From Verrucomicrobiia bacterium (GTDB taxonomy: Bacteria > Verrucomicrobiota > Verrucomicrobiia > Limisphaerales > Palsa-1400): a DNA stretch of 64,000 nt. Positions within the stretch are counted from its first letter, which is position 1. Each line of letters starts with the position of its first letter. Below, piece by piece: positions 5,180 through 35,977 of this stretch. The notes under the pieces are model-generated. The model had not been told where the DNA came from and made no database searches. It saw nothing but the letters and a program-made list of their open reading frames with translations. Where the stretch lies: contig DATAXU010000026.1 of NCBI GenBank assembly GCA_036272955.1, positions 1,419 to 65,418 on the forward strand. The letters run 5' to 3'. Both the position numbers and the translations under genes were made by a program.

Positions 5180-5325
5180 TGGCAGTCGCAACCGTAATGA
5201 AAAACCCTCACGGCGCCTTGACAAATACCCCTTTCCTTTGAAAGCATAAACGGAAGCCGCGACCTTGATTGGCTCCCGAAACGGGAATTGACCGGCAGCG
5301 GGATGCAACCGCAACCTTAACCATC

Positions 5326-6381
5326 ATGAAGAAATTATTAGTGACTGGCAGCAGTGGCTTGATCGGATCCGCGGTGGCCGAATCGTTTCATTCCCGCGGC
5401 TGGGAGATTTTTGGGGCCGACAACAATATGCGCGCGGATTTCTTTGGTCCCGAGGGCGACACTCTTTGGAACCTCAAACGGCTCTCGCGTGAGTTAAAGC
5501 ATTTTACCCACAACGACCTCGACATCCGCAATCGGGAACGTGTGTTGGCCCTGGTGGCGCAAATCAAACCGGACGCCATCGTCCACTGTGCGGCGCAACC
5601 GAGCCACGATCTTGCTGCCAAAAGACCATTCGAGGATTTTGACGTCAATGCCGTCGGAACGCTGAATCTGCTGGAGTCCGCGCGGCGGGTCAGCACCGGG
5701 ATTGTTTTCGTTCACATGTCCACCAATAAGGTTTACGGGGATGCGCCCAATCGGATCGCTCTCAACGAACTGCCCACGCGCTGGGATTATGCCGACGCCG
5801 CTTTTCAAAATGGAATCGCCGAGACGATGACGATCGACCAGTCCAAGCATTCCCTCTTCGGCGCGAGCAAGGTGGCGTCGGACATTCTTGTGCAGGAATA
5901 CGGTCGCTATTTTGGGATGCCGACTTGCTGTTTGCGCTGCGGATGTTTGACAGGCCCCCAGCATAGCGGCGTCGAACTCCACGGTTTTCTCAGCTATCTC
6001 GTAAAGTGCAATCTCGAAGGCCGGATGTACAATATTTTCGGCTACAAGGGAAAACAGGTGCGGGACAATATCCACGCGGCCGACGTGGCTGAATTCATCC
6101 GGCGGTTTATCGAGGCTCCCCGCGTTGCTGAAGTCTATAATCTTGGGGGCGGCCGCGCCAATAGTTGTTCGCTGCTCGAAGCGTTCGCGCAGGCCGAAGC
6201 CATTTCCGGCAAAGCGCAAAAAACCACCTACGTCGATAAAGCGCGCGAGGGCGACCATATCTGTTACATTTCGGATTTGTCAAAATTACAGGCGCATTTC
6301 CCCGGCTACATTTTATCGCGGTCTCTGGCGGATATTTTCAGGGAATGCGTCGATGCGTGGCGAAACCGTTTGGCTGCCTGA
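5326..6381 (+). CDS. Extended SDR NAD-dependent epimerase/dehydratase, CDP-tyvelose/paratose 2-epimerase-like
   Basis: Starts at [15 protein letters not shown] (Rossmann GxxGxxG). STNKVYGD and [13 protein letters not shown] resemble tyvelose-epimerase-type SDRs. The expected YxxxK reads FGASK (see findings). Confidence 0.8.
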
Positions 6382-6399
6382 ACAGGCGAAGACCGCTGG

Positions 6400-7437
6400 A
6401 TGAATTACGGCTTCTGGAATTTCTACAAGGTTTATAATCAAAACCGGATGCTGACCCGCAATGTGACGCCGCTGGGCGACGACCTCTCGTACCCGATGCG
6501 GCGCCTCAGCGAGACGTTGCTGGCGATGGGCCACCAAACCGCGACGCTGGACATGCAGCCGCTGGAGTGGTTCGACCGCGTTTTCTTTCTTGACTACCCG
6601 ATGCGGTTTAACCGCTTTTACCGCGGCTTTCTGGCGAACAAGCACCCGGACATCAATCTGATCATCTGCGAGCCTCCCATCGTCCGCCCCGACAATTACG
6701 ATAAGCGAAATCACCAGCCGTTCCGCCGGGTGATGACTTGGAAACACGACCTTGCCGCAATCGACCCCGCGAAATACCTTCTCTACCGCCTGCCAAATAA
6801 GTTTCAGGATCGAACGGCCTCACGCCCTTTTGCCGAACGAAAACTCTGCTGTCTCATCAACAGCTTCATGTTTTCCATCCATCCTCGGGAACTCTACACG
6901 GAGCGGATTCGCGCCATTCGCTGGTTCGAGACAAATGCGCCTGCGTCTTTTGATCTGATTGGGGTGGAATGGGACAAGCCTCTTTTCATCGGGCAGTTAT
7001 CAAGGCTGAACTTTCCGCTTCGCTTTTTTTACCGCCGAATCGGATTTCTGAAAAAGCTCAAAATCCGCAAGTTCTCCTCCTTCATCGGCCCGAACACAAA
7101 GTCCAAGCATCTGACTTTGAAAGATTACCGGTTTTGCGTCGCCTACGAAAATTCCCGCGAGCCGGATTATCTCTCCGAAAAGCTATTCGATTGCTTTTTT
7201 GCCGGTTGTGTTCCAATCTATGAAGGCGCCCCGAATGTGCTTGACACAATTCCGGCGAACACATTTATTGACAAGCGCAAATACACCTACGACGAGTTGT
7301 ATCGTTACATTTCGACGATGACGGAACGCGAGTACAATGGGTATTTGGACGCCATCGAGTCATTTCTGCAAGGCCCGGCGATGCGCCCATTTACGGCGGA
7401 GGCGTACACTGAATTGTTCGTCAAGAACTTCGCGTGA
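6400..7437 (+). CDS. Glycosyltransferase family 10-like (alpha-1,3-fucosyltransferase-like)
   Basis: The C-terminal motif YRFCVAYENSREPDYLSEKLFDCFFAGCVPIYEGAPNV matches the GT10 signature (...FENS...YxTEK...G.VPIY.G). It starts 19 nt after the epimerase gene. Confidence 0.65.
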   Translation: MNYGFWNFYKVYNQNRMLTRNVTPLGDDLSYPMRRLSETLLAMGHQTATLDMQPLEWFDRVFFLDYPMRFNRFYRGFLANKHPDINLIICEPPIVRPDNYDKRNHQPFRRVMTWKHDLAAIDPAKYLLYRLPNKFQDRTASRPFAERKLCCLINSFMFSIHPRELYTERIRAIRWFETNAPASFDLIGVEWDKPLFIGQLSRLNFPLRFFYRRIGFLKKLKIRKFSSFIGPNTKSKHLTLKDYRFCVAYENSREPDYLSEKLFDCFFAGCVPIYEGAPNVLDTIPANTFIDKRKYTYDELYRYISTMTEREYNGYLDAIESFLQGPAMRPFTAEAYTELFVKNFA

Positions 7438-7465
7438 AACGGCCTAAAAAGACGGTTGGTTTTGA

Positions 7466-10369
7466 ATGTTTTTCCCATATGCTGTCGAAAGCTCTATGAA
7501 CCGAGACGGATCCAACTCTAAACTAAAGGGGCCAAGCGGATTATTTTGGCTGTTGCTGCTGATTCTGGTGGGGTGTTATGCCGTTTTATGTTACCAGGGG
7601 TTCTTTCCATACGAGGTTTTCTTTGCCAATGATTCCGCGCTGGGCGCGATGAGAGACAGCTCGGCGCGTTATCCCGGAATTTTCACCGGATTTTGGGCGG
7701 ATTTTTGGTGGATTGGCGGCGCGGTGCCCGCCCCATCACCTTCGATTTCAGGCCTGTTTTCAGCGGCCCTTGCGCCCGAACACTACCTCAAAGTTTATGC
7801 GCCCCTGACGATGGTGTTTTTTGGGTGTTGCGCATGGTTTCTATTCCGCCAGTTGCGTTTTGCTCCGGTTGTATGCGTCGTGGGCGGGGTGGGCGCGGGA
7901 TTGAACATGCACTATTTCTCCAATGCCTGCTGGGGTCTGGGCACGTGGATCGTTTCCGCGGGCATGGTTTTCGTCGCCGTGGGAATCATCGTCAGTCCTT
8001 ACATCAGGAAACTGTGGCTCAAAGGCATATTGGCGGGATTGGCGGTCGGCATGACCATCATGGAGGGCTTTGACGTCGGGGCGATCTTCAGCATCTACGT
8101 TGGGATTTTTATCGTTTTCTATTTTCTTTCCTCGGAATCGGATTTCGCCAAAGGCGCCATGCGCGCGGTGGGCACGGAGGTGCTCGTCGTGATTTTTGCC
8201 GCTCTTATTTCCGCCAGCACACTCTACACCCTGGTGGGAACACAACTCGGCGGTGGCGGCGGTGCGGGCGGCGACCGTTGGGACTTCAATGTGCAATGGA
8301 GCATCCCAAAACTGGAATCGCTCCGCGTTTTCATCCCCGGCCTGTTCGGTTATCGCCTTCGGGAATTTACAACGTCTCCGGACAAATCCGGTTCATATTG
8401 GGGCAGCGTCGCCGAAGACCCCCGCATCGCGGAATTGCAAAGCAGCGATCCGCAAGTCCGCGTTCACGCGGCGCAGGCCATGGGCATGCCGCAAAATATT
8501 CAGGACATCTTTTCCGGCGACGATGTCAAGGTGCGCAACCAGATTATGCAACAAGTCAGGGATAGCGGCGTCCAATTGCGCCATACCGGCTCCGGCGAAT
8601 ACGCCGGCCTGCTGGTTTGCCTGCTGGCGGTCTTCGGCCTGGCAAATTCCATTCGCAAAACCGATTCCCCATACTCGCCCCAGGAGCGCCGGCAAATATG
8701 GTTCTGGACGATTGCGGGCGCAATATCGCTCATGGCCGCGTGGGGGCAGCACGGCTTCGTTTATCGGTTCTTCTATGACCTTCCATTTCTCACGGACATT
8801 CGCAGCCCGATGAAGTACATGCATCCGCTGAACCTTTCCCTGATCATTCTTTCCGGCTTCGGCCTCGAGGTGCTTTACCGCCGCTACCTAAGCGCGCCAA
8901 CTCCGAAGGGAAAGGGCTTTTTCTCGTTGATGTTGGCGGGACTGAAAAAGTTCTCCGCCTTTGACATCAAGTGGGTGATCGGATGCGCCATTGTGCTTGT
9001 CGTTTCCGTCGCCGCCTTTCTCATGATGAGGGGGTCGCGTGGCGAACTGATCCAATACCTCCATAGCGATGGATTCGGTCCGCAGATGGTCGATACCGCG
9101 CGCATGGAACTCGCGCCTCAGATTGCGGATTTCAGCATCAGCGAGGTCGGGGACTACGTCATTTACCTGGCGATCTCCGTCGGGTTGATCACGCTCATTC
9201 TCACCGGCGCCTTCACCGGGAAGAAGGCCGCAATTGCCTGGATCGGACTGTGCGTGATTACGATTTGCGACCTTGCGCGCGCGGACGCTCCGTGGATTCG
9301 CTATTTCAACTACAAAGCCAAATACGCCATGAACCCCGTCGTGGATGTCCTTCGCAAAAATCCCTGGGAACACCGCGTTACCTCCCGCTTTTCGCCGATG
9401 GGCGGATACGATCTGAGCACCGATCAAAATTTTGCCCCACTGTGCCATTGGTGGCTGGAAAATGATTTCCCCTATAACGACATCCAGTCTCTGGAAATCG
9501 ACCAGGCCCCCCGCATGCCGGCGCTCGACTCCAGCTACATCGGCACTTTTATGGCGCACTCCGGCGCCGATCTCTCCCCAGCCGCCCTTCAATGGGCCTC
9601 CACCCACCCGCGCGACAACCCGATTTGGAACTGGGTCGTGCAGTCAACGGCCGCCGCCCGCCTTTGGCAGTTGACCAACACACGCTACATCTTCGCCGAC
9701 GCCCAGTTGGCCGACGTGCTGAACCAGTTCGTCAATCCGCCGAATAGTTTCACGACGGTCCTGCGCATGGACATGACCAACAAGCCGGGGATCACATTGG
9801 CCGAAGACGCCGGTGACATGGCGGTCCGAACCAACGCGGAAGGCAAATTCGCGCTGATCGAATTCAAGAACGCCCTGCCGCGCGCCAAACTTTATTCCAG
9901 TTGGCAAATCAAGGACGATCCGGCGACGTTGCAAACCCTCTCATACCAGAGCTTCAACCCCCAGAAGACCGTTGTCATTTCGACCAACGTTCCAATCGCC
10001 GAAAAGTCCGGCTCGCCGGATGCCGATCCCGGCACGGTCGAAATCACGCATTACCAATCCAAGCATGTGCAACTTAAGGCCGATGCGAAGACGCCCGCCG
10101 TGCTGCTGGTGAACGACCGTACCAGCGAGTGGTGGAGGGCCTGGGTGGACGGCAAACAGGTTCCGATGCTGCGCGCCAACTATATCATGGAAGGCGTCTT
10201 CGTGCCCCCTGGCCGGCACTCGATTGATCTGCGCTTCCAACCGCCGCTGAAGTTTCTATACTTCAGCGTCGCCGCACTCCTGCTCGGGATCGTCCTGGGA
10301 GGATACGTGATTTACGACCACTTCAGCATCGAACCCCAAACAGAACCTTCGCCGTCGCGCCAGCCCTAA
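7466..10369 (+). CDS. Large polytopic membrane protein, YfhO-like (putative glycan/lipid-linked glycosyltransferase)
   Basis: 967 aa with many hydrophobic segments in the N-terminal two thirds. The C-terminal region ...WWRAWVDGKQVPMLRANYIMEGVFVPPGRHSIDLRFQPP plus a final TM resembles the YfhO family tail. Confidence 0.55.
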   Translation: MFFPYAVESSMNRDGSNSKLKGPSGLFWLLLLILVGCYAVLCYQGFFPYEVFFANDSALGAMRDSSARYPGIFTGFWADFWWIGGAVPAPSPSISGLFSAALAPEHYLKVYAPLTMVFFGCCAWFLFRQLRFAPVVCVVGGVGAGLNMHYFSNACWGLGTWIVSAGMVFVAVGIIVSPYIRKLWLKGILAGLAVGMTIMEGFDVGAIFSIYVGIFIVFYFLSSESDFAKGAMRAVGTEVLVVIFAALISASTLYTLVGTQLGGGGGAGGDRWDFNVQWSIPKLESLRVFIPGLFGYRLREFTTSPDKSGSYWGSVAEDPRIAELQSSDPQVRVHAAQAMGMPQNIQDIFSGDDVKVRNQIMQQVRDSGVQLRHTGSGEYAGLLVCLLAVFGLANSIRKTDSPYSPQERRQIWFWTIAGAISLMAAWGQHGFVYRFFYDLPFLTDIRSPMKYMHPLNLSLIILSGFGLEVLYRRYLSAPTPKGKGFFSLMLAGLKKFSAFDIKWVIGCAIVLVVSVAAFLMMRGSRGELIQYLHSDGFGPQMVDTARMELAPQIADFSISEVGDYVIYLAISVGLITLILTGAFTGKKAAIAWIGLCVITICDLARADAPWIRYFNYKAKYAMNPVVDVLRKNPWEHRVTSRFSPMGGYDLSTDQNFAPLCHWWLENDFPYNDIQSLEIDQAPRMPALDSSYIGTFMAHSGADLSPAALQWASTHPRDNPIWNWVVQSTAAARLWQLTNTRYIFADAQLADVLNQFVNPPNSFTTVLRMDMTNKPGITLAEDAGDMAVRTNAEGKFALIEFKNALPRAKLYSSWQIKDDPATLQTLSYQSFNPQKTVVISTNVPIAEKSGSPDADPGTVEITHYQSKHVQLKADAKTPAVLLVNDRTSEWWRAWVDGKQVPMLRANYIMEGVFVPPGRHSIDLRFQPPLKFLYFSVAALLLGIVLGGYVIYDHFSIEPQTEPSPSRQP

Positions 10370-10451
10370 CACCCCATTTACAAATATGGATGGGATGGCA
10401 GCCCACTCAAGCCGAAGCCGCCGTCAAATTTGAAGTTCTCGCTTTCCGATT

Positions 10452-10478
10452 CTTCGTGGCCTTCGTGGCCTTCGTGGT
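10452..10478. repeat. Three tandem copies of a 9-mer (CTTCGTGGC x2, CTTCGTGGT)
   Basis: Read directly in the convergent intergenic region between the 7466-10369 and 10507-10851 genes. Confidence 0.7.
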
Positions 10479-10506
10479 GTCAAGTTCGGACCCGGACGCC
10501 ACCTAA

Positions 10507-10851
10507 CTAATTATGCGACACGACCCGGGCGCGCAAACGAGATCGCGGCATGCGTCCCAATTTGAGTCCGGCGGAACCGCGCTTAGACCCGGCTTGTTTT
10601 GCCAGGATATAGCTTGGCGATTTTCGCAGCCGGCGCCGATATTTCAGTTTATGGCGCATTCTTTCGCGGGCGGCGATCGTGTGCTTCAGGCAGTACACGC
10701 CAACGGCGGGTGCTCCGCACGTCAAACAAATGCCGCGCGCTTTTTTGCGCATCATATGGATTTGCTGCCGGGACATGGGGGTGCCGTCGGCCTTGAGCAA
10801 TCCGGTAAATTCGTCGCTAATTTTCTTTCTGCTCCAGCTCTTTTTTTTCAT
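10507..10851 (-). CDS. Small highly basic protein with CxxC...CxxH zinc-ribbon-like motif (hypothetical)
   Basis: The ATG at 10851 (MKKKSWSRKK...) is preceded by GGGAGGAG about 10 nt upstream and by a perfect TATAAT (plus-strand attata at 10891-10896). The protein is Lys/Arg-rich and contains GICLTCGAPAVGVYCLKH. The opposite-strand ORF 10513-10962 looks like junk. Confidence 0.5.
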   Translation of the reverse strand: MKKKSWSRKKISDEFTGLLKADGTPMSRQQIHMMRKKARGICLTCGAPAVGVYCLKHTIAARERMRHKLKYRRRLRKSPSYILAKQAGSKRGSAGLKLGRMPRSRLRARVVSHN

Positions 10852-10968
10852 AGTTGTGTCTCTCCTCCCATCTTCGAAGTGGGTATTTGTATTATACACC
10901 AGTTTGAAAGAACCGCCAGAAAAAGTGTCAACTATTTCGGATTTATCTTGCAAAAAATATAACTGGGG

Positions 10969-11835
10969 TCAGGTCGCGGGTATAAACCGTTGCAACAGCA
11001 ACGCCAGCAGAAACAAAATCGGGAATATCGCCGTCCATGGCTTCCCGATTACCGCCACGCTCAGCAAATCTACTAATACGATTCCGGCCAGCAGCCGCGA
11101 CACTGTAAAACCAATATTCGCTCCGCGCCCAAAACTCCGGCTCACCGCCCACAGTCCCCAAAGCGCCAGCACGACCGAAAAAACCGTCGCGGCCCTCGCC
11201 GAAACGCCGTCATCGATGCATCCCGCCATGAAAATCGGCGCCACAAGCAGAATGCACGGCCAGTAATTGATCTTCGCGCGCCCGCTCTCCTTCCGGGCGA
11301 TCCAGCTCAAGCCCGCGACATAAACCGCCAGCGCAATGCCCTTCCAAATAACCTCGCCATTCACCCCATTGGACGCTGCGGACGCCGCCACGAGATAGAC
11401 TCCCAACCGGCACGCGCCCATCAAAAGCGGCGCAAACGGCGTCCATTTATGCACCGCATTGTAAGTCACGATGCACCCGCTCAATAGCAGCCCAAAAATG
11501 AGCACCGTCGAACCCCGCCACGCGACGCCCGCCAGCCCCAGAATCAGCCAGACACATCCCCACTGCCAAACTTCCCCTTCGCTGATCGCCCCTGAAGGGA
11601 TCGGCCGGGTCCGGCGATGATGCCGGTCGAAGGTCGCGTCAAAAGCGTCATTGAGAAACATTCCGCCCTCATAAAGCAAACTCAGCGAAATCGAAATACA
11701 GACCAACGTCCAAACAGCGCCGCCCCCCCCAAGCCACCACGCCGCCACGCAATCCGACCAGACAGTAGGCAAATTGGACACGCGCCCCAACGTCAGGAAA
11801 ACCCGCCATTTCGATGGCCGTGGAAACCAGTTCAT
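10969..11835 (-). CDS. UbiA-family aromatic prenyltransferase (EboC-like)
   Basis: 288 aa and polytopic. The first Asp-rich motif is NDAFDATFDRHHRRTRPIPSGAIS, typical of UbiA prenyltransferases. It is on the same strand as the TatD/EboE genes upstream. Confidence 0.8.
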   Translation of the reverse strand: MNWFPRPSKWRVFLTLGRVSNLPTVWSDCVAAWWLGGGGAVWTLVCISISLSLLYEGGMFLNDAFDATFDRHHRRTRPIPSGAISEGEVWQWGCVWLILGLAGVAWRGSTVLIFGLLLSGCIVTYNAVHKWTPFAPLLMGACRLGVYLVAASAASNGVNGEVIWKGIALAVYVAGLSWIARKESGRAKINYWPCILLVAPIFMAGCIDDGVSARAATVFSVVLALWGLWAVSRSFGRGANIGFTVSRLLAGIVLVDLLSVAVIGKPWTAIFPILFLLALLLQRFIPAT

Positions 11836-12227
11836 AGGCGGCCCAACCCCCAGGGCTGATTCATACTAGGCTGGAACTGGTTTTGAAACTCACGCATTCT
11901 GTACGCCACCTTTGAACCGCTTTAACCCGCAAATTAAATTATTTGGTCTCCACTTGATATAAAACGGCGGTTGCGAATTTGATGGGCAGTGTCCTAATTT
12001 GGATCGTCCAAATGCTTCCAAATTTTTACGATGACCCAAACGAATACAAATCCAAGCGATGCTCCGCCGAGGCAAATCCAAATCCAACGTAGCACTTCAT
12101 GTGTCATTTCTTCCCTTTCGCATCCTTCAAAATAATCGCCCCGTCTCCGCATTGCGAGTTTGAAATTGCCCAGCGGCATTGGGGGCGCTCGGAATTAAAC
12201 CGAGTGCCGTCTGGATGTACGTCGGCT

Positions 12228-12339
12228 TTTGGGGCCGTACTTAATCGTTTAACATTTGAAATTTCTCCTTGCATGTCTCGATCGGGTCTTGTCAATCAAT
12301 TTGTTGAATGTTAAAGTACGGCCCCAAATATTTTTTCTT
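12228..12339. other. Long imperfect inverted repeat (15-bp perfect outer stem + 7-bp inner stem, 50-nt loop) followed on the + strand by TATTTTTTCTT
   Basis: TTTGGGGCCGTACTT (12228-12242) pairs perfectly with AAGTACGGCCCCAAA (12314-12328). TAACATT (12250-12256) pairs with AATGTTA (12307-12313). The T-tract is at 12331-12336. The function (terminator, sRNA or miniature repeat element) is unresolved. Confidence 0.6.
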
Positions 12340-12584
12340 GTGCTCTGCACCGTGGAAACCCGTGACCGCGCGCATATCGCCGAGGTTCAACAACGGTTAG
12401 CAGAAAACAACGTAGAACTGTTCCGTGCAGAGAAATGAGTGTCTTTAACTGACTCAGTCCTGGCCCAGAGTGATTACCAAAAATAATTTCCGAACTGGCA
12501 GGAGACGGAATGGTTTTCGGAGAGGTACAGCCAGTTTGATTCTTTTTGCTCTTCGGGAGCTTCGTAGCATCCGCTGTGCGGTGC

Positions 12585-13793
12585 TTATCTCGTATTGTGC
12601 TGACTGCCTTCGTGGTAACCTTCCCGTTCACCCAACCCCCGCGACCGCAATTGCGCCACGCACCACTCATATTCCGCCGCAAGCTGATCCACGACGTTCC
12701 GGCTTTTCAATTCCGCCGGCAACACCTCCCAGGTATAAGTCTCCATCTCCAGGTGCGAACAAAGTCCAGGGTCCGCCGCCAGGACATCCAGCACCCCCAG
12801 CAAATGGTCCGCCGTAGTGTCAAACCAATTCCCCGGCCCGGGTTTAAATTGAAGCGGAATATGAAAGTGAATGCGCCATTCCTCGTCCTTCAACGACGCA
12901 GGTGAACCCAGCGCGACATCCAGATCGGGAAACCGGGTGAAGCCGCCCCCAGCCGCGCGAGCCACGACCTGGTGCAAATAAACCTCATCGGCAAAGGCAC
13001 CCACAGCCGCCCGGGCCTCCATCGTAGGCCGCATTTTCAACGCCGAACTAAGGTGAATTTTGGAGATTTTAATCCCGTGCCCGCGCAATTTCGCCAACGA
13101 CTCGCGCGGGTCTTCGTATTCGACCGCCATGTGACAGGTGTCATAATTGACGCCGAGGCACGACGCCATTTGCGGGTCATTCCCATGTTCCGAGCGCAGG
13201 AGATCAAAGAACTCCACCGTCTCATCCGTCGTCTCCAGCACGCAGAGCGGTTCCGGCTCCAACCCAAGATGCAGCGTGCGCCCGCTCTTTTCAGCGACGG
13301 CGGCGACATGCTCGACGCAACGCCAGATGTTGGAGCGGATTTGCCGCCCCTGTTCGGGCGTTTTGATAAAGTCCTTGAACGAGCAGGGCAGGGTGCTGAC
13401 GCTTCCTTCGACGCCCTCGGGGACCAATTGCGCCAACAAGTCGAACAGCCGGTTGGTATATTCGAGCCGCTCGGGCGTCGTCCAATCCGGCGAATAGACC
13501 TGTTCCTTGACCCGCTGCCCGTGAAATTTGCCGTAGGGAAACCCGTTGATAGTGAAGACGTAACAGTCATGCTGCGTGAGCCAGCGCCGAAAATCGGCCA
13601 GCGCCGCCCCCTCGGACAATTCCCGCGAGGCTCGGTCGCTCAACCTCAGCCCGATTCCGAAACTGCCGGAAGGCGAAACGCGCTGTTTTACCGCCAGCGT
13701 GTATTGTTCCAGGGCGCCGAACGTTTCCGGCCACGTCTCCCCGCGGTGGATATTTCCGCAGTAAGCAAGATGATGGCCTTTGGCGAGCAGCAT
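12585..13793 (-). CDS. eboE: Xylose-isomerase-like TIM-barrel protein, EboE-type ('metabolite traffic protein')
   Basis: 402 aa. The N-terminus HLAYCGNIHRGETWPETF...FGIGLRLS...YVFTINGFPYGKFHGQRVKEQVYSPDW...YTN matches my recollection of EboE sequences. It sits 4 nt downstream of a TatD hydrolase gene. Confidence 0.65.
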   Translation of the reverse strand: MLLAKGHHLAYCGNIHRGETWPETFGALEQYTLAVKQRVSPSGSFGIGLRLSDRASRELSEGAALADFRRWLTQHDCYVFTINGFPYGKFHGQRVKEQVYSPDWTTPERLEYTNRLFDLLAQLVPEGVEGSVSTLPCSFKDFIKTPEQGRQIRSNIWRCVEHVAAVAEKSGRTLHLGLEPEPLCVLETTDETVEFFDLLRSEHGNDPQMASCLGVNYDTCHMAVEYEDPRESLAKLRGHGIKISKIHLSSALKMRPTMEARAAVGAFADEVYLHQVVARAAGGGFTRFPDLDVALGSPASLKDEEWRIHFHIPLQFKPGPGNWFDTTADHLLGVLDVLAADPGLCSHLEMETYTWEVLPAELKSRNVVDQLAAEYEWCVAQLRSRGLGEREGYHEGSQHNTR

Positions 13794-13797
13794 CGGC

Positions 13798-14604
13798 TTA
13801 CACAGGGGCGCGGAATTTCTTTGACTGGCTCAGAAATCGCGCCGGATTTTCGAAAATCAGCGCCTCGATTTCCGCCGGAGCGTGCCCGCGCTGCCGCATT
13901 TCCAGCGCCGCTCGCGGAACCGCCAGAGGCACGCTCACCCCCCAATCGCACGCACTGTTCATCCAGAGCCGCTGATTCCCGTATAGTTCGACCATGTCCG
14001 CCGCCCGCGCCGCCGTGCATTTGGATTCCGGGTAAAGCGTCATCCCCGCCCAAAACCCCGCGTCCAGCACCAGCTTGATGGTGTGCTCCTCGACATGGTC
14101 GATAATCACACGCTCCGGGTTGATGCGGGAATCCGCCTTCAACGAATCAATGATAAGCTTTGTCCCCTTGAGCTTGTCCTCCAGGTGCGGTGTGTGAATG
14201 AGAATCAACTGCCCATGCCGCGCCGCCAGATCGACATGCCGCTCAAACACGGTTAACTCATTGCGGCTGTTCTTGTTCAATCCAATCTCCCCGATCCCCA
14301 GAACATTCGCCCGGTCCAGGAACTGGGGAATGATGTCCAGCACCTCGTTCGCCAGCTTGAGGTCCTCGGATTCCTTGGGATTGAGGCAAAGCCAGCAATA
14401 ATGAACCAGCCCGTGCCTGGCGGCCCGTTTCGGTTCGTATTCGGTCAATTGCCGGAAATAATCATAAAACCCATCGACCGACGTCCGGTCGAACCCCGCC
14501 CAAAAAGCCGGTTCGCAAACCGCCTGGCATCCTGCCGTTGCCAACGCGACGTAATCGTCGGTCGTCCGACTAACCATATGGGCATGAGGCTCGATATAAC
14601 GCAT
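13798..14604 (-). CDS. TatD-family metal-dependent hydrolase (EboB-like)
   Basis: 268 aa. It has [10 protein letters not shown] (N-terminal His-x-His metal site), GEIGLN and LILIHTPH, which are TatD/amidohydrolase-fold motifs. Confidence 0.8.
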
Positions 14605-14607
14605 GGC

Positions 14608-14883
14608 TTATTTGTGCCCCGCCCAGGCCCCCGACGCGCCGGACGTCGTCGCGGCGGCAATCGGCTCCAAAGTGGGGTCGCTCAGACTGACCAGGACGCG
14701 CTTAGCCCGCTCCGGCTTGTCGTGATGCAATTCTTTCAGGGCATTGCGGAAGGCATCGATACGGAAATCGCTGTCAGCGCCCTCAGCGCGGTCAAAGCGG
14801 TCAAGGAAAGCCGCGAGATCGATCAATTTGGCCCGAGCTTCCATGAAATACAGGTCGAGAACACGTTGGCGGGTCATGCGCAT
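14608..14883 (-). CDS. Hypothetical 91-aa protein at the head of the TatD/EboE operon
   Basis: The ATG ORF ends 3 nt before the TatD start codon. I recognise no motif. It occupies the position of eboA but is much shorter than the EboA proteins I remember. Confidence 0.4.
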   Translation of the reverse strand: MRMTRQRVLDLYFMEARAKLIDLAAFLDRFDRAEGADSDFRIDAFRNALKELHHDKPERAKRVLVSLSDPTLEPIAAATTSGASGAWAGHK

Positions 14884-15094
14884 AACCTTTCGAGTTTCTG
14901 CGAGGCTGGCCTTCGGGACAAGTTGAAAAACCGTACCGTTGTATTTTTAGACGCTTTTAAGCGATTTTTTCACTTCCGCCTTTCGGCAAGGAGTTTGCTT
15001 AAGACATGGCGATGTGTCATTTGTTCCCTTGTTCGCTGGATTTTGGCGCAGAAATGACCACAATGGACAAAAAGAACACGGGCCGCCTGTTTCA

Positions 15095-16534
15095 ATGCTG
15101 AGAAATTACAACCAGGAAAAGTTTTTCGACGAAATGATGGATGCCCACGGCGGCGTCCGCTCTCATTACCGCCAATTCTGCTCCCTGTTCGAATCGCTCG
15201 ATTCAGACGAGTTCGAGGAAAAACGCCATTCCATCGACCTCGCCTTTCTCCGCCAGGGAATCACGTTCAACGTCTATGGCGATTCCCAAGGCGCCGAGCG
15301 CATTTTCCCATTCGATCTGGTCCCGCGCATCATCCCCGCCGCGGAGTGGGAACGTCTGGAACGAGGATTGATTCAACGGATCACCGCGCTGAATCTTTTT
15401 CTGCGCGATATTTATCACGAACAAAAAATCGTCAAGGACGGCGTGGTCCCTCCCTTCTATATTCTTTCCGGAAAACACTTCCGCCGGGAGTTCGTCAATA
15501 TCAAAGTCCCCAAAGACATTTACATCCATGTGTGCGGGACAGATTTGATCCGCGGCGAGGACGGCCAATACATGGTCCTTGAGGACAACGGCAGATGCCC
15601 CAGCGGCGTGAGCTACGTGCTGGAAAATCGCCGCGCGATGAAGCGCAGCTTTCCAGAAATGTTCGAGCGCATCGGCGTGCGCCCCGTGGAGCATTACCCA
15701 CAGGAGTTGCTGAAAATGCTCCAACACATTGCGCCCCCGGGTGTCGCGAATCCGACCATCGCTCTGCTCACCCCCGGCGTTTACAACAGCGCCTATTTCG
15801 AACACACGTACCTCGCTCGGCAAATGGGAATTGAAATCGTCGAAGGCCGCGACCTCGTCGTCAGCGATTCGCGGGTGTTCATGCGCACCACCAAAGGACT
15901 CCAGCCCGTCCACGTAATTTACCGGCGCATCGACGATGATTTTCTGGACCCCACTGTTTTCCGCCGCGATTCGATGCTCGGCGTCCCGGGCCTGGTCCAC
16001 GCCTATCGTTCCGGCCATGTCTCTCTCGCCAATTCCATCGGCACCGGCATTGCCGACGACAAAGTGATGTATTATTTCGTCCCGCGAATGATCAAATATT
16101 ACCTCGACCAGGATCCAATCATCCCGAACGTTCCTACGTACCTCGCGAGCGAGGAGGCCGACAAAAAATATATTTTGGAAAACCTTTCCAATCTCGTCGT
16201 CAAGGCGGCAAACGAATCGGGCGGCTACGGAATGTTGATGGGCCCGAGCGCGGACGCCAAGGAAATCGAAGCCTTCCGCCAACGCATCGTAGCCGACCCG
16301 CGCAATTACATCGGCCAGCCGATGATCCCGTTATCGCGCCATCCGACCCATGTTGAAAGCACGGATTTCCAGGGACGCCACATTGATTTGCGCCCTTACA
16401 TTATTTGCGGGGAAAAGACCACCGTCGTCCCCGGCGGCTTGACGCGCGTGGCGCTGCGTCCGGGTTCGCTCGTCGTGAATTCCTCGCAAGGCGGCGGAAG
16501 CAAGGACACCTGGGTGCTTTATGGAGACGAATAA
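15095..16534 (+). CDS. Circularly permuted type-2 ATP-grasp protein (COG2308-type amidoligase)
   Basis: GITFNVYGD...ERIFPFDLVPRII..EWERLERGLIQRITALNLFLRDIY, VLEDNGRCPSGVSYVLENR, LLTPGVYNSAYFEHTYLARQMGIEIVEGRDL and GGLTRVAL..GSLVVNSSQGGGSKDTWVL all match this family closely. I chose the ATG at 15095 (MLRNYNQEKFFDEMMD). Confidence 0.9.
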   Translation: MLRNYNQEKFFDEMMDAHGGVRSHYRQFCSLFESLDSDEFEEKRHSIDLAFLRQGITFNVYGDSQGAERIFPFDLVPRIIPAAEWERLERGLIQRITALNLFLRDIYHEQKIVKDGVVPPFYILSGKHFRREFVNIKVPKDIYIHVCGTDLIRGEDGQYMVLEDNGRCPSGVSYVLENRRAMKRSFPEMFERIGVRPVEHYPQELLKMLQHIAPPGVANPTIALLTPGVYNSAYFEHTYLARQMGIEIVEGRDLVVSDSRVFMRTTKGLQPVHVIYRRIDDDFLDPTVFRRDSMLGVPGLVHAYRSGHVSLANSIGTGIADDKVMYYFVPRMIKYYLDQDPIIPNVPTYLASEEADKKYILENLSNLVVKAANESGGYGMLMGPSADAKEIEAFRQRIVADPRNYIGQPMIPLSRHPTHVESTDFQGRHIDLRPYIICGEKTTVVPGGLTRVALRPGSLVVNSSQGGGSKDTWVLYGDE

Positions 16535-16536
16535 CG

Positions 16537-17574
16537 ATGCTTAGCCGGGTGGCCAATTGCCTCTACTGGATGTCGCGGTACATCGAGCGTGCGGAAAACA
16601 TCGCGCGCATCGTCGATGTCAACCTGCAACTGCTGCTGGATTTGCGCGACCTTGACGACGAGCGCCTCGCCGAGCATTGGATGCCGATCGTCCAAAGCAC
16701 CGGCGACGAAAGCGCCTTCCTGAAATTGCACCCGAAAGCCACCGGCCAGTCCGTGACGGAATTTCTTGTTTTCCAGCAGGCAAACCCCAACTCCATTATT
16801 TCCGCGGTTTGCCAGGCCCGTGAAAACGCCCGCATGGTGCGGGACCAGATCACGATTGAGTTTTGGGAGGAATTGAACCGGATTTATCTTTTTGTGCGCT
16901 CGCCCGAGGCGCGCAAAGTGTGGCGGCAAAGTCCGAGCGAATTTTTCCAGGAGATCAAGGCGGCGTCGCTGCACCTGGTGGGAATCGGGGACGCCACGAT
17001 CCTGCACAACGAGGGATGGTGGTTTGCGCAGGCGGGCAAATTCATTGAACGCGCCGACAAAACATCGCGAATCCTGGACGTCCGTTACGCGAGCCTCCCC
17101 GCGCAGGGCGCGCCCGTCGCGATCAGCCAAAGCGAAGCGCTCGGTTGGGCGGCGGTGCTGCGGTCGTGCAGCGCGTGGGACGCCTACAAATCCATTCGCG
17201 GCGCAGAAATTCATCCGGTCTATGTCGCGGATTTTCTTTTGTTCAACGAGGACTTTCCGAGGTCGGCGCGATTTTGCGTGGGCGAACTGAACCGCGCGTT
17301 GCGGCGGATTTCCGGCGTCCAGCCGGGGCGTTTTTCCAACGACGCCGAAAAATTGTGCGGCCGGCTGGTGGCGGCGCTGCAATTCAGCACCGTGGACGAA
17401 ATTTTCGAGCAGGGGATGCATTTGTACCTGGACCAATTCCAGGATAAATTGAATGCGATTGGCAGCGCGCTCTTTGATGCTTACATTTTCCAGGAGTTCA
17501 GCAACGATGGGGCCGATATGATGATCCAACAAGAGGAACAGCAACAGCAACAGCAGCAACGGAGCGCGCGATGA
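16537..17574 (+). CDS. Alpha-E domain protein (COG2307), partner of the permuted ATP-grasp
   Basis: Starts with MLSRVANCLYWMSRYIERAENIARIVDV, the hallmark alpha-E N-terminus. It begins 2 nt after the ATP-grasp stop. The C-terminus carries a QQEEQQQQQQQ tract. Confidence 0.9.
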   Translation: MLSRVANCLYWMSRYIERAENIARIVDVNLQLLLDLRDLDDERLAEHWMPIVQSTGDESAFLKLHPKATGQSVTEFLVFQQANPNSIISAVCQARENARMVRDQITIEFWEELNRIYLFVRSPEARKVWRQSPSEFFQEIKAASLHLVGIGDATILHNEGWWFAQAGKFIERADKTSRILDVRYASLPAQGAPVAISQSEALGWAAVLRSCSAWDAYKSIRGAEIHPVYVADFLLFNEDFPRSARFCVGELNRALRRISGVQPGRFSNDAEKLCGRLVAALQFSTVDEIFEQGMHLYLDQFQDKLNAIGSALFDAYIFQEFSNDGADMMIQQEEQQQQQQQRSAR

Positions 17575-18950
17575 AACGCGTCGGCATCCTGACTGCGGGC
17601 GGAGACACACCGGCGCTGAACGCCACGATTCACGGAGCGGTCACCCGCGCCAACCAACTCAAGATCGAAATCATCGGGTTGATCAAAGGCTTCAACTCCC
17701 TCTTCAATCCGCAATTGCCCCACGTCCATCTCAACCCGCTTTTCCAGGAGATCCCGGAATTGGACCCGACCAAAGGCGGAACGCTCATCGGTTCCTCGCG
17801 CGATTATGTGGACCCTGAGAAAACCGAGGAACTGGACCTCATCGTGTCGAGGCTGAAAAAAATCGGCATTGAAGGATTGATCTGCATCGGGGGCGACGGG
17901 ACGTTGAACGGCCTGCAACCGCTGGCGGATCGTCTGCCCACGGTCCTGGCGCCCAAAACAATCGACAACGACCTCGGCTTGAACTACCCGAGCGAGCCGG
18001 ATGAATGGGTGCGCGCCAAGGATGGAAACACCGCCGGCTACAAATATCGCCGGACGCACTCCCACGCCGTTTTTGGCCTGGACCAGATTGTCAATTACGC
18101 GACGCCCGGTTTTGCGACGGCGGTGTATGTTTCCGCTTCCGGCGTGGAGCGCATCCGCACGACCGCTGAGAGCCACCGGCGAATTGCGATTGTGGAAGTG
18201 ATGGGACGCCATTCGGGTTACATCGCGCTGGGCACGGCGTACGGGCAGCCGGACATCATCCTGGTGCCGGAGGTCCCGATTGATTTGGAACGGATGGTCG
18301 ATCGCATCAAATATCTTTATGATTTGCAGAAAAACGTTGTGATCGTCTGCGGGGAGGGAATCACCGACGAGCAGGGGCACGAGTTCGGGGCAGGATCGGA
18401 AACGGCGGACCCCGCCGGCAACGTCGTGCTGAGCGGGGCGGGGGAAGCCTTGCGGGCGATGCTGATCCGGATGATTGGCGACCGTTATTTTCAACTTTAC
18501 AGGCGGTGCGAATCGGCGCGCGAAGCGATCTTCCTGCGCAAAGTCGGCCACACCCAGCGCGGCGGGCGGCCTATTTTATTTGACAGATTTTACGCCGCGC
18601 AACTCGGCGGCAAAGCGGTGGATTTGCTCGTCGAAGGCCGCAACAACTCCGTGGCCATTCTTCAGCGCAACGACCAGAAAGGGTTCTACGTGGACGGTTA
18701 CGACGCCAACCGTTTTCGCGACCGCTGGGGGCACATCCATGCGCGGTTGATGCACCCGTCGTTTTACGACCGCGACCGGATGTTCCTGTCGCAGACCGGC
18801 ATTGATTACCTGCTGCCGATATTCACGGACGCCATCGGAGACGATGACATGGAGGCGGTGCGCACCCGGTTGTTCGCGCCGGGAAGTTTGTCGCACCCGT
18901 ATCACAGCATCAATACCGACCTTCAGAAGAGAATGCACTACCTCGAATAA
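17571..18950 (+). CDS. 6-phosphofructokinase-family kinase (459 aa, long form)
   Basis: GILTAGGDTPALNA, CIGGDGTLNG, KTIDNDL, VEVMGRHSG and GHTQRGG are all present, with an insertion of about 30 aa after TIDND. The start codon overlaps the alpha-E stop (ATGA at 17571-17574). Confidence 0.85.
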   Translation: MKRVGILTAGGDTPALNATIHGAVTRANQLKIEIIGLIKGFNSLFNPQLPHVHLNPLFQEIPELDPTKGGTLIGSSRDYVDPEKTEELDLIVSRLKKIGIEGLICIGGDGTLNGLQPLADRLPTVLAPKTIDNDLGLNYPSEPDEWVRAKDGNTAGYKYRRTHSHAVFGLDQIVNYATPGFATAVYVSASGVERIRTTAESHRRIAIVEVMGRHSGYIALGTAYGQPDIILVPEVPIDLERMVDRIKYLYDLQKNVVIVCGEGITDEQGHEFGAGSETADPAGNVVLSGAGEALRAMLIRMIGDRYFQLYRRCESAREAIFLRKVGHTQRGGRPILFDRFYAAQLGGKAVDLLVEGRNNSVAILQRNDQKGFYVDGYDANRFRDRWGHIHARLMHPSFYDRDRMFLSQTGIDYLLPIFTDAIGDDDMEAVRTRLFAPGSLSHPYHSINTDLQKRMHYLE

Positions 18951-18959
18951 AAAAATCCA

Positions 18960-21900
18960 ATGTCCATACACATCGCGCTGCAGCACCGAACCAGCTACCA
19001 CTACGACCGGTTGGTGTCGCTTGGCCCGCAAATCGCGCGATTGCGCCCCGCCCCGCATTCGCGGACGCGCATCCTGAGCTACTCGCTGACGGCGCTGCCG
19101 CAAAAACATTTCATCAACTGGCAGCAGGATCCCCAATCCAATTACCTCGCGCGCCTGGTTTTTCCCGATAAGACCGACCGGCTTGAAGTGGAAGTCAATC
19201 TCGTCGCGGAGATGGCCGTGCTCAACCCGTTCGACTTTTTCCTGGAGCCGGAAGCGGAACGCGCGCCCTTCTCCTACGCGGCGACGTTCGACCACGAGTT
19301 GGCTCCCTATCGCCTGGAGTGCGCTCCGACGCCTCGCTTAGACGAATACTACGAAAATGTCACCGGCCCTTTCGCGCAACGCAAAGGCAACGACCGGGCG
19401 CGGACGATAGATTTTTTGGTGGCCGTCAACCAAAGCCTCCACCGGGACGTCAAGTATTTGATTCGCCTCGAGCCAGGCGTGCAGACCCCGGAGGAAACGC
19501 TGCTCAACCGCAGCGGGTCGTGCCGCGATTCGGCGTGGCTGATGGTGCAACTGCTCCGGCGTTTCGGTTTCGCCGCGCGTTTTGTCAGCGGTTATCTCGT
19601 TCAGCTTGTGCCCGACGTGAAGTCGCTGGACGGCCCGTCCGGCGCGGCGAGCGATTTCACCGATCTCCATGCCTGGTGCGAAGCGTATTTGCCGGGCGCC
19701 GGATGGATTGGGCTGGACCCGACCTCCGGGCTGCTGGCGGGCGAGGGACACATTCCATTGGCGGCAACGCCCGATCCGCAAAGCGCCGCGCCGATCAGCG
19801 GGGCTGTGGACCCGTGCGAATGCAAGCTTGCGTTCGAGATGAAGGTCACGCGCATTTACGAATCCCCGCGCGTCACAAAGCCCTACACGGAGGAACAGTG
19901 GAAGGACATGGATAAAGTGGGACTTCACGTCGATGCGGATTTGCAAGAGCACGATTGCCATTTGACGATGGGAGGCGAGCCGACGTTCGTCTCCGTGTCC
20001 GATCGCGATGGGGCAGAATGGAACACAACGGCTCAAGGGCCGTCAAAACGCGCGATTGCCGACGAGTTGCTTCGCCGGCTCAAAAAACGATTTTCCAAGG
20101 GCGCGCTTTTGCATTACGGCCAGGGAAAATGGTATCCGGGAGAATCGCTTCCGCGCTGGGCGTTTTCGGCGTATTGGCGCAAGGACGGCCAGCCGCTCTG
20201 GGAAAACGAAAAACTGTTCGCCCTGGAAAGCACCAATTACGGGCATGGCAACAAGGAGGCCGAGAAATTCATTCAGGCCTTGGCGCAACGTTTGGGATGC
20301 GGCGGCAAATGGATCATGCCCGCGTACGAGGATTCGTGGTACTATCTGTGGAAAGAACGGCGGCTCCCCGTAAATGTCGATCCGCTCAAGTCAAATCTGA
20401 AAAACGAGGAGGAACGCAAGCGGCTGGCAAAAGTTCTTGAGCAGGGTCTCGGACGCGTCGTTGGTTACATCCTGCCGGTGGAACGCGCCGCCGCGGGCGC
20501 AACGCCGGGGTGGAAGACCGGCCCGTGGTATTTTCGCCCGGAACATTGTTTTTTGCTTCCGGGAGATTCTCCCATGGGATTTCGCCTTCCGCTGGAGTCG
20601 CTCCCTTGGGTTCGCGCCGGCGATTACCCGTATATATATGAGCAGGACCCCCTGGAAACGCGTTCGGCGCTTTCGCGGCGTCCGGCGCAGCCCTATCAGC
20701 GCCAGGCGCCGCTGCAACCAGTCCCGCCCGCGCCCCAGGTATCCGCGCCTTCGGTTCCCCGCACCGCTTTGTGCGTCGAAAGTCGCAACGGGCGGTTGCA
20801 TATTTTCATGCCGCCTGCGCGCGTCCTGGAGGATTATCTGGACTGCGTCGCGGCGGTCGAAGAAACGGCGAAATCGCTGGATATTCCCGTGGTGGTCGAG
20901 GGCTACGCGCCGCCGCACGATCATCGCTTGAATGTGCTGAAGGTCACGCCGGACCCTGGAGTCATCGAGGTGAACCTGCATCCGTCCGCCTCGTGGAACG
21001 AGTTGGTCGAACAAATCGAGACGCTTTACGAAGAGGCGCGGCAGGCGCGATTGAGCACGGAAAAATTTATGATGGACGGGCGGCACGTCGGGACCGGCGG
21101 CGGAAATCATCTCGTGCTCGGCGGGCCGAGTCCGGCGGAATCGCCGTTGTTGCGCCGGCCGGATTTGCTGCGGTCGGTCGTCAGCTATTGGCAAAACCAC
21201 CCGTCACTTTCGTTTTTGTTCAGCGGACTTTTCATCGGCCCCACGAGCCAGAGTCCGCGCGTCGATGAGGCGCGCAACGACTCGCTTTACGAACTGGGAG
21301 TGGCGTTTCGTCAATTGCCGGACGGCGGAAATGTTCCGCCATGGCTGGGCGACCGTTTGTTTCGGAATTTGCTGGTCGATGCGACGGGCAACACGCACCG
21401 CGCGGAATTTAGCATCGACAAGCTTTTCCCGCCGGAAAGCAGCGCGGGACGACTCGGATTGCTCGAAATGCGCGCCTTTGAAATGCCGCCGCATCCGCGC
21501 ATGAGCCTCGCGCAGCAATTGCTGGTTCGCGCTCTGGTTTCTCGGTTCTGGCGCGCACCTTATACAGAGTCGCTGGTCCCGTGGGGGACCGATATTCATG
21601 ACCGCTGGATGCTGCCGCATTTTGTGTGGGACGATTTTTGCGACGTGATCGAGGATTTGCGGCGTCACGGCTACGCGATGCAGAGCGAATGGTTTCGGCC
21701 GCATTTCGAGTTTCGTTTTCCGCAATTTGGGGATTTGGACGTACGGAACATTCACCTGGAAATACGTCAAGCATTGGAACCGTGGCATGTTTTGGGAGAA
21801 GAACCCGGGCCGGGAGGAACGGTGCGTTACGTCGATTCCTCGCTGGAACGCGTGCAAATCAAAGCGCGCGGGCTGACGGGATCGCGTTACGTGATTATGG

Positions 21901-35937: not shown

Positions 35938-35977
35938 AATCAAGTCAAATCAAGCCCAATCAAGGCTAATCAAGCTT
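35938..35977. repeat. Four 10-bp-phased direct repeats with invariant core AATCAAG
   Basis: AAATCAAGTC / AAATCAAGCC / CAATCAAGGC / TAATCAAGCT. The cores are at 35938-44, 35948-54, 35958-64 and 35968-74. The last copy overlaps the cgs stop codon (35970-35972). Confidence 0.85.

Follow-up and report, generated by a model that had tools for sequence, protein, structure and literature searches.

An eboG-type ebo sub-cluster (eboG–eboB–eboE–eboC) and its clade-specific companion gene in a Limisphaerales/Pedosphaera-like verrucomicrobium

The ebo genes are very widespread and stayed cryptic for a decade; they are now tied to thallusin, a picomolar morphogen of green seaweeds (10.64898/2026.05.21.724671, a preprint). 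Two forms of the operon have been distinguished. In one of them, described from Deinococcales, Herpetosiphon and some further taxa, the place of eboA is taken by eboG, a short and poorly conserved gene (PMC5133447, section 3.2), and the tree of EboB splits accordingly into an eboA-type and an eboG-type (PMC5133447). In Planctomycetes the ebo genes are not clustered (PMC5133447; 10.64898/2026.05.21.724671), and the preprint reports that single deletion of eboB, eboC, eboE or eboF abolishes thallusin in Stieleria maiorica, in which they are scattered. EboC homologues farnesylate hydroxyquinaldic acids (PMC9235831; 10.64898/2026.05.21.724671). Here we describe an ebo locus in a 64 kb stretch of verrucomicrobial DNA (contig DATAXU010000026.1), referred to below as the window. 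A first-pass annotation of this DNA had called the ebo product chemically unknown, a statement that is outdated given the link to thallusin made in the preprint.

Judged by its sequence, the locus is an eboG-type ebo sub-cluster with the order eboG–eboB–eboE–eboC (hereafter G-B-E-C), followed by a clade-specific gene that we call s114, in a Limisphaerales/Pedosphaera-like verrucomicrobium, and all four ebo genes are assigned as orthologues of the ebo genes of complete clusters. The ebo system itself is already known, in its published eboG-type form, and split ebo genes are expected in this phylum. What is new is the recurrence of G-B-E-C across many Verrucomicrobia, the linkage of s114 to EboC, a 779 bp insertion between eboE and eboC, and the finding that the NCBIfam cutoff for EboC is over-strict.

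Four ebo genes of the eboG type

All of the open reading frames (ORFs) of the ebo locus are read on the minus strand. They were scanned against the Pfam and NCBIfam families and compared with complete ebo clusters carried by plasmids of Ketogulonicigenium, Salipiger, Azospirillum and Deinococcus, together with three more from contigs of metagenomes or metagenome-assembled genomes (MAGs). The four ebo genes are co-directional and physically clustered, being 3 nt, 4 nt and 749 bp apart in turn, and represent only four of the six genes of a cluster. The ORFs, the spacers and the peptide motifs quoted in the first-pass annotation, HLAYCGNIHRGETWPETF in the 402-aa EboE and NDAFDATFDRHHRRTRPIPSG in the 288-aa UbiA protein, were all recovered at the positions that it had given.

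The third gene, eboE (402 aa; 12585–13793, minus strand), follows eboB after a 4-nt spacer and encodes a xylose-isomerase-like triosephosphate isomerase (TIM) barrel. The protein scores 453.7 bits on the NCBIfam equivalog NF035939 (TIM_EboE), for which the cutoff is 250, and covers positions 1–378 of the 379 of the model, with a weak score of 29 bits on the generic xylose-isomerase-like family PF01261. The proviso attached to the first-pass annotation, namely that the 402-aa protein could lie closer to generic isomerases, is contradicted by these two scores. It is 39–45% identical to four in-cluster EboEs; a sequence search of the PDB with EboE gave no match.

The first gene of the locus (91 aa; 14608–14883, minus strand) encodes a small predicted helical protein. 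In the cluster of the Deinococcus plasmid (L086), the order is eboD, a 108-aa hypothetical gene, TatD, eboE, UbiA and eboF, and the product of the 108-aa gene, which lies between eboD and eboB, shares 42.5% identity (E = 4e-15) with the 91-aa protein. We identify the 91-aa ORF on this sequence evidence as EboG, which stands in for EboA in the alternative form of the operon; the ORF had been taken in the first-pass annotation for an interposed lineage-specific ORF, a description that does not hold for a gene with a Deinococcus counterpart in the same position. In about 30 verrucomicrobial loci, a hidden Markov model (HMM) of EboG matches the gene that immediately precedes TatD (L086 and a second eboG-type complete cluster, L087, are matched as well, but both sequences went into building the HMM), and the family counts 973 database matches. 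The order in L087 is C-D-G-B-E-F. No homology was detected between EboG and EboA (hhalign probability 0.1%), and EboA is absent from the window according to both NF035938 and tblastn with reference EboA. EboG matches no Pfam or NCBIfam family and a sequence search of the PDB with it came back empty. A protein 100% identical to it is annotated in a MAG labelled 'Verrucomicrobiae bacterium' (locus tag VH619_02105, on a 68 kb contig); an exact look-up of the 100%-identical EboG record returned nothing. Its AlphaFold2 model consists of three helices with a mean predicted local distance difference test score (pLDDT) of 77, for which Foldseek found nothing in the PDB better than E = 4. By analogy, EboG may be an accessory or regulatory subunit, as was proposed for EboA and EboG in 2016 (PMC5133447).

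The second gene, eboB (268 aa; 13798–14604, minus strand), starts 3 nt after eboG and encodes a hydrolase of the TatD fold, predicted to be metal-dependent. The family scans are generic here (PF01026 TatD at 32 bits, TIGR00010 as the sole NCBIfam match and no match to an EboB-specific NCBIfam model). Comparison with in-cluster proteins places the protein in the eboG-type subclade: EboB is 60–61% identical to the eboG-type EboBs (Deinococcus L086, and L087) and 38–43% identical to eboA-type EboBs, with 39–43% for alphaproteobacterial EboB. It also bears the eboG-type signatures, i.e. the DQxxLxxGNxxLRG tail is missing from its C-terminus and the HLEDK insertion, of one residue, is present. In an alignment with in-cluster EboBs, the residues His7, His9, Glu106, His137, His140, His170 and Asp220 are invariant. 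Probably, eboG, eboB and eboE are co-transcribed and translationally coupled, because only 3–4 nt separate one from the next.

The fourth gene, eboC (288 aa; 10969–11835, minus strand), encodes a membrane prenyltransferase of the UbiA family (PF01040). Its best NCBIfam family is NF035940 (EboC), with 104.9 bits for a cutoff of 250 bits, and its second best is SCO3242, with 77 bits. As a control, the EboCs of four complete clusters (L083–L086) were scored on NF035940 and reached 76–96 bits. The window protein is 34–37% identical over its full length to four in-cluster EboCs. When nine in-cluster EboCs are aligned, the DxxDxxxD motif (Asp63, Asp66 and Asp70), Tyr55 and Arg143 are invariant; these match the Asp-rich motif, Tyr-56 and Arg-145 of the EboC homologue Ubi-297 (PMC9235831), and the residues for the aromatic substrate and the diphosphate are conserved in the window protein. 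We assign the UbiA protein as EboC on these similarities. The control also has a bearing on annotation: the 250-bit NCBIfam cutoff misses genuine EboCs outside ABCDEF-type clusters. Indeed, because it misses the EboCs of the complete clusters of Alphaproteobacteria and Deinococcus, PGAP names these in-cluster proteins merely 'UbiA family prenyltransferase'.

Taken with the family scores, the in-cluster identities support the assignments of EboB, EboE and EboC made in the first-pass annotation. Its description of the locus as a 'rearranged variant' does not stand, since G-B-E-C occurs in just this order inside the Deinococcus cluster D-G-B-E-C-F.

Recurrence, scattering and a local insertion

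Relatives were defined as the best 80 EboE-encoding loci in a collection of species-representative genomes and were mapped by tblastn. Their EboEs are 57–82% identical to that of the window, and nearly all of the 80 loci are labelled Verrucomicrobiota (Verrucomicrobiia, Limisphaerales, Pedosphaera); the few with other taxon labels are probably binning errors. Of the 65 loci whose flank is long enough, 40 have eboC directly downstream of eboE, and eboG–eboB lies upstream of eboE in 23 of 61. When only loci with flanks of 2.5 kb or more on each side are considered (49 verrucomicrobial loci), 12 have G-B-E-C, 19 have E-C, 14 have eboE alone and four have G-B-E.

The ebo genes are modular and scatter within Verrucomicrobia. 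G-B-C-s114 without eboE is found in L094, and the same arrangement in L096–L099 (one abundant organism); L102 has G-B, two inserted genes and then C-s114, and L100, which is without G-B, carries s114 as the second gene after eboC. Scattering is plainest on the closed 6.03 Mb chromosome OY969763.1, where G-B-E lies at about 1.24 Mb (L067) and eboC–s114 at about 4.26 Mb (L093), i.e. about 3 Mb apart. The sub-modules G-B, E and C-s114 can come apart, which makes the locus a natural experiment on which ebo genes have to remain linked. In related verrucomicrobial MAG sequence (L102 11181–12186 and L103 3738–4743), the genes inserted between eboB and eboC are small and encode a DUF2283 protein and an ORF6N-domain protein, a further case of foreign DNA breaking into the cluster.

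The gene downstream of eboC in the window, s114 (114 aa; 10507–10851, minus strand), encodes a basic protein with a CxxC...CxxH motif and is a clade-specific companion of EboC. The family has 367 database matches at 66–94% identity, of which the named ones are nearly all verrucomicrobial. Core residues 6–81 are almost invariant, with the pattern C42-x2-C45-x8-C54-x2-H57, and are followed by a variable basic tail. Homologues have 113–121 aa (L003 12137–12478, L093 10001–10351, L094 10001–10342 and L096 10001–10351). The protein of the window is 93% identical to the L003 copy, compared with 82–83% for EboE and EboC. An HMM of s114 picked up the gene in nine different genomes among those searched, each copy being on the same strand as UbiA and immediately downstream of it; in three further organisms it is also directly adjacent to UbiA, except in L100, and it remains beside UbiA where eboE or eboG–eboB sit elsewhere. 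About 40 other loci with eboC are without s114. Moreover, in most loci with s114 the UbiA–s114 pair adjoins glycosylation genes (YfhO-like, GT10, GT2 and Methyltransf_21), an adjacency shared by L003, L015, L040, L093, L096 and L102; the L093 genome is the one with eboG–eboB–eboE 3 Mb away. The s114 protein has no Pfam or NCBIfam match, and a structural model with a pLDDT of 78 gave no Foldseek hit in the PDB better than E = 4. From its composition, s114 might bind zinc and nucleic acid, and both EboG and s114 are candidate regulatory or accessory subunits. In L100 (9418–10366), a 117-aa ORF lies between UbiA and a 121-aa homologue of s114, of which it may be a tandem paralogue.

A feature that sets the window apart from its relatives lies between eboE and eboC. 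The gap between the two genes is 749 bp (11836–12584) with a GC content of about 0.47, compared with about 0.59 in the flanks, in agreement with the AT-richer spacer of about 750 bp reported in the first-pass annotation. That annotation had read it as an 'island' within the order B-E-(island)-C. It is instead occupied by a low-GC insertion of 779 bp (11852–12630), missing from every relative examined, at the ends of which the direct repeat GGGGGTTGGG (a 10-mer, given for the minus strand) is found at 12631–12640 and 11842–11851; these are the two copies of this 10-mer in the 64 kb, for 0.19 expected. In the closest relatives (L003, L015, L040, L012, L022 and L038) the distance from eboE to eboC is 0–27 nt, with the stop of eboE overlapping the start of eboC in L003. 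An alignment of the junctions with L003, L015 and L040 shows that this ancestral overlap has been duplicated at both ends of the insertion: the C-terminus of EboE departs from that of the relatives straight after ...RGLG, its last 14 residues being encoded by the insertion, and the ancestral 'GLGRL-stop' overlapping ATG persists as a second copy right before eboC in the window.

The insertion is not an assembly artefact, because it is seen in independent assemblies (L001 and L002); the contigs identical to the window are one of 7.4 kb in the JGI (Joint Genome Institute) metagenome 3300036820 and one of 1.6 kb in a Logan assembly. Neither blastn nor tblastx detected any similarity to it in the loci of the 80 relatives. 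It contains a hairpin (12228–12328; 27-nt arms and a 47-nt loop) with a predicted RNA folding energy of −33.5 kcal/mol (z = −5.25 compared with shuffles). There is no Rfam match in the insertion, and a 22-mer taken from the hairpin has no exact match in metagenome contigs. The JGI gene call places a putative 61-aa ORF within it. The flanking direct repeat resembles a target-site duplication; no terminal inverted repeats and no transposase were seen in the insertion, and we do not call it a transposon. eboC would once have been coupled to eboE through the overlapping stop and start, and with the two genes now separated by the insertion its expression should require read-through or a promoter within the insert.

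The unattached genes and the pathway

We may wonder at this stage where the two remaining genes are. The first-pass annotation had seen no EboD-like or EboF-like gene in the 64 kb, and both searches agree: Pfam scans of all large ORFs of the window list no PF01761 protein (EboD, a DHQS-like sugar-phosphate cyclase or DEI synthase) and no PF01663 protein (EboF, a nucleotide pyrophosphatase/phosphodiesterase), and tblastn with reference sequences is negative. Nor does tblastn find eboD or eboF in about 1.24 Mb of sequence made up of the 80 EboE-anchored loci together with L093 and L094, and for the remaining verrucomicrobial loci neither a PF01663 nor a PF01761 protein appears in the Pfam tables. 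The reference sequences do recover EboD at 55–58% identity and EboF at 62–64% when they are run on control clusters of other lineages. Since the two proteins are so highly conserved and so readily detected in the controls, their absence near the ebo genes is reliable; the flanks sampled amount to about 15 kb per genome and are silent on distant copies. A search of a large protein database with the Deinococcus EboF gave matches of at least 60% identity, the named ones being from Deinococcus, Chloroflexota (Roseiflexaceae and Herpetosiphon among them), Cyanobacteria and Bacteroidota. Three of these matches on long contigs belong to complete clusters, with no solitary genes of the type expected in the Planctomycetota–Verrucomicrobiota–Chlamydiota (PVC) superphylum, and the cluster-member names of ten further hits include only Chloroflexota and Actinomycetota.

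A phosphoesterase of family PF04185 (phospholipase C/acid phosphatase; 22953–24422, plus strand, 381.7 bits) is encoded 8 kb from the ebo genes. We considered it as a substitute for EboF and rejected it, as it belongs to another family, lies beyond an unrelated operon and is not syntenic in any of the relatives.

We favour a split pathway, with eboF and the cyclitol supply elsewhere, over a true reduction. More precisely, we estimate at roughly 60% the probability that G-B-E-C carries out the middle and late ebo steps, while EboF and the cyclitol supply are encoded elsewhere in the genome. Following the literature, EboB and EboE would process a cyclitol-derived, aspartate-containing hydroxyquinaldate scaffold, to which EboC would then attach a farnesyl group in the membrane, possibly also cyclising it, so as to form a meroterpenoid of the saccharoquinoline/thallusin type. 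The missing steps, EboF (phosphodiesterase family) and the making of the cyclitol (by EboD or by an inositol route), would be encoded elsewhere, as in Planctomycetota. According to the preprint, the core set of eboB, eboC, eboE plus eboF co-occurs, at any location, in genomes of several orders of Verrucomicrobiota (10.64898/2026.05.21.724671).

Several points weigh against this reading. Both the window and some 1.24 Mb of sequence around the ebo genes of about 85 verrucomicrobial loci gave no eboD and no eboF, and no named verrucomicrobial EboF appears among the best 120 EboF homologues or in the ten clusters inspected. The verrucomicrobial EboE and EboC are only 39–45% and 34–37% identical to the references, compared with 47–48% among the reference EboEs themselves, and the chemistry may therefore differ. 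The insertion may impair the expression of eboC. Finally, it should be noted that the link to thallusin comes from a preprint and is carried over to Verrucomicrobia by analogy, and that the literature, so far as it was accessible, reports no verrucomicrobial producer of thallusin or saccharoquinoline.

The same observations can be read as those of a truly reduced pathway, in a clade without eboD and eboF, where G-B-E-C (with s114) would draw on another or an external precursor and make a different prenylated product. We regard this as a possibility to be reckoned with, albeit a doubtful one. The two genes are never adjacent to ebo genes in the approximately 85 verrucomicrobial loci, easily detected as they are, but scattering within the clade has been demonstrated for eboC and eboE, and flanks of about 15 kb per genome say little on distant genes. 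The lack of a verrucomicrobial EboF among the best EboF matches fits a loss of the gene, whereas the preprint has eboB, eboC, eboE and eboF together in several verrucomicrobial orders and each of them essential in a planctomycete. EboE and EboC are unusually diverged, as a change of product would lead one to expect, yet EboC retains the residues for the aromatic substrate and the diphosphate. The near-invariant, clade-specific s114 tied to EboC, and the glycosylation genes that adjoin UbiA–s114 in most of the s114 loci, would also suit a reduced pathway. A bolder form of this explanation, which strikes us as unlikely, is that in Limisphaerales-type Verrucomicrobia G-B-E-C (with s114) is self-contained, with no EboD or EboF in the genome, and yields a non-thallusin product, perhaps prenylated and linked to glycosylation, the Cys3His protein s114 being an obligate partner or regulator of EboC.

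That the locus is decaying, the insertion having uncoupled eboC and altered the C-terminus of EboE in a cluster now partly or wholly non-functional, seems quite improbable. The insertion replaces the overlapping stop and start, adds a 14-residue tail to EboE and holds a very stable hairpin, but it falls beyond the conserved portion of EboE and does not touch the start codon of eboC, and none of the five ORFs is broken or shortened, their catalytic residues being kept. Other relatives tolerate 0.6–3.4 kb between eboE and eboC, and one (L102) has two inserted genes between eboB and eboC. Moreover, the same sequence is found in three assemblies with no further lesions. As for the idea that generic paralogues (TatD, sugar-phosphate isomerase and UbiA) with no relation to ebo lie side by side by accident, an accidental grouping of paralogues being a reservation that the first-pass annotation had kept, and for which the weak, generic Pfam scores, a UbiA score below the EboC cutoff and a TatD match to generic TIGR00010 only could be invoked, it is effectively refuted by the EboE equivalog score far above its cutoff, the high identities to in-cluster Ebo proteins and an order equal to that of the complete Deinococcus cluster, and chance is excluded because the same gene order recurs, with synteny across dozens of species, in many verrucomicrobial genomes.

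Surroundings and comparison with known systems

Upstream, eboG is separated from a divergent operon for a circularly permuted ATP-grasp protein by an intergenic region of 211 bp (14884–15094), a length that assumes the ATP-grasp start at 15095 given by the JGI gene call on the identical contig. The operon (15014–22256, plus strand) encodes this ATP-grasp protein (PF14403/PF04174), a protein with an Alpha-E domain (PF04168) and a putative amidoligase of 1098 aa (transglutaminase-N/DUF2126), with a gene of the phosphofructokinase family (17571–18950) embedded in it. The first-pass annotation had proposed that the region is a control region shared by the two divergent operons: the region is real, whereas shared control finds no comparative support, the adjacency being shared by the identical contig L001 alone and missing from all 80 relatives. 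We accordingly discarded a functional link between the ebo locus and the ATP-grasp operon. Promoter-like matches across 10300–15200 were not above those in shuffles.

On the other side, convergent to eboC–s114, the window encodes an NAD-dependent epimerase/dehydratase, a GT10 fucosyltransferase-like protein and a 967-aa YfhO-like membrane protein (5269–10369, plus strand). In other Verrucomicrobia, recurrent genes downstream of eboC look by eye like sulfite reductase, 3′-phosphoadenosine 5′-phosphosulfate (PAPS) reductase, CysN and cysteine desulfurase genes; tblastn gave no match between these sulfate-assimilation-like neighbours and EboD or EboF. A very large ORF of 2860 aa occupies 35970–44552 (minus strand) of the window.

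Compared with the Actinomycetota-type ebo cluster (ino1–3 route and a prenyltransferase of the SCO3242 family), the locus has in common the lack of eboD and a UbiA protein for which SCO3242 is the second-best family; it differs in having no ino1–3 in the window, in lacking eboF as well and in having eboG. With the canonical eboABCDEF operon of Bacteroidota and Cyanobacteria, and with the EDB cluster of Pseudomonas fluorescens, it shares EboB, EboC and EboE, which we assign as orthologous, and the EboC residues. It departs from them by having EboG in place of EboA, another gene order, a shorter EboB, no eboD or eboF nearby and no association with scytonemin or tryptophan genes.

The scattered ebo genes of Planctomycetota, represented by Stieleria maiorica (10.64898/2026.05.21.724671), are another close system: they belong to the same PVC superphylum and likewise have neither eboA nor a complete cluster, and the splitting of loci is also seen on a verrucomicrobial chromosome. 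The difference is that four genes stay clustered here, with eboG among them, a gene that the preprint does not consider, and that the product, thallusin, is known there, whereas here we have the genes alone. G-B-E-C would not be counted as a cluster, because the published screen requires at least four of nine target proteins and does not include EboG.

A further close system is the eboG-type operon (PMC5133447), in the form D-G-B-E-C-F found in Deinococcus. It has the same G-B-E-C order and orientation, the same EboB signatures, a homologous EboG and no EboA. In the window, eboD and eboF are unattached, and eboC is followed by s114 and set apart from eboE by the 779 bp insertion; the host phylum, Verrucomicrobiota, lay outside the survey of 2016 that described this operon. 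It is in this less-studied eboG-type version, as a compact G-B-E-C module, that ebo occurs in Verrucomicrobia of soil and freshwater.

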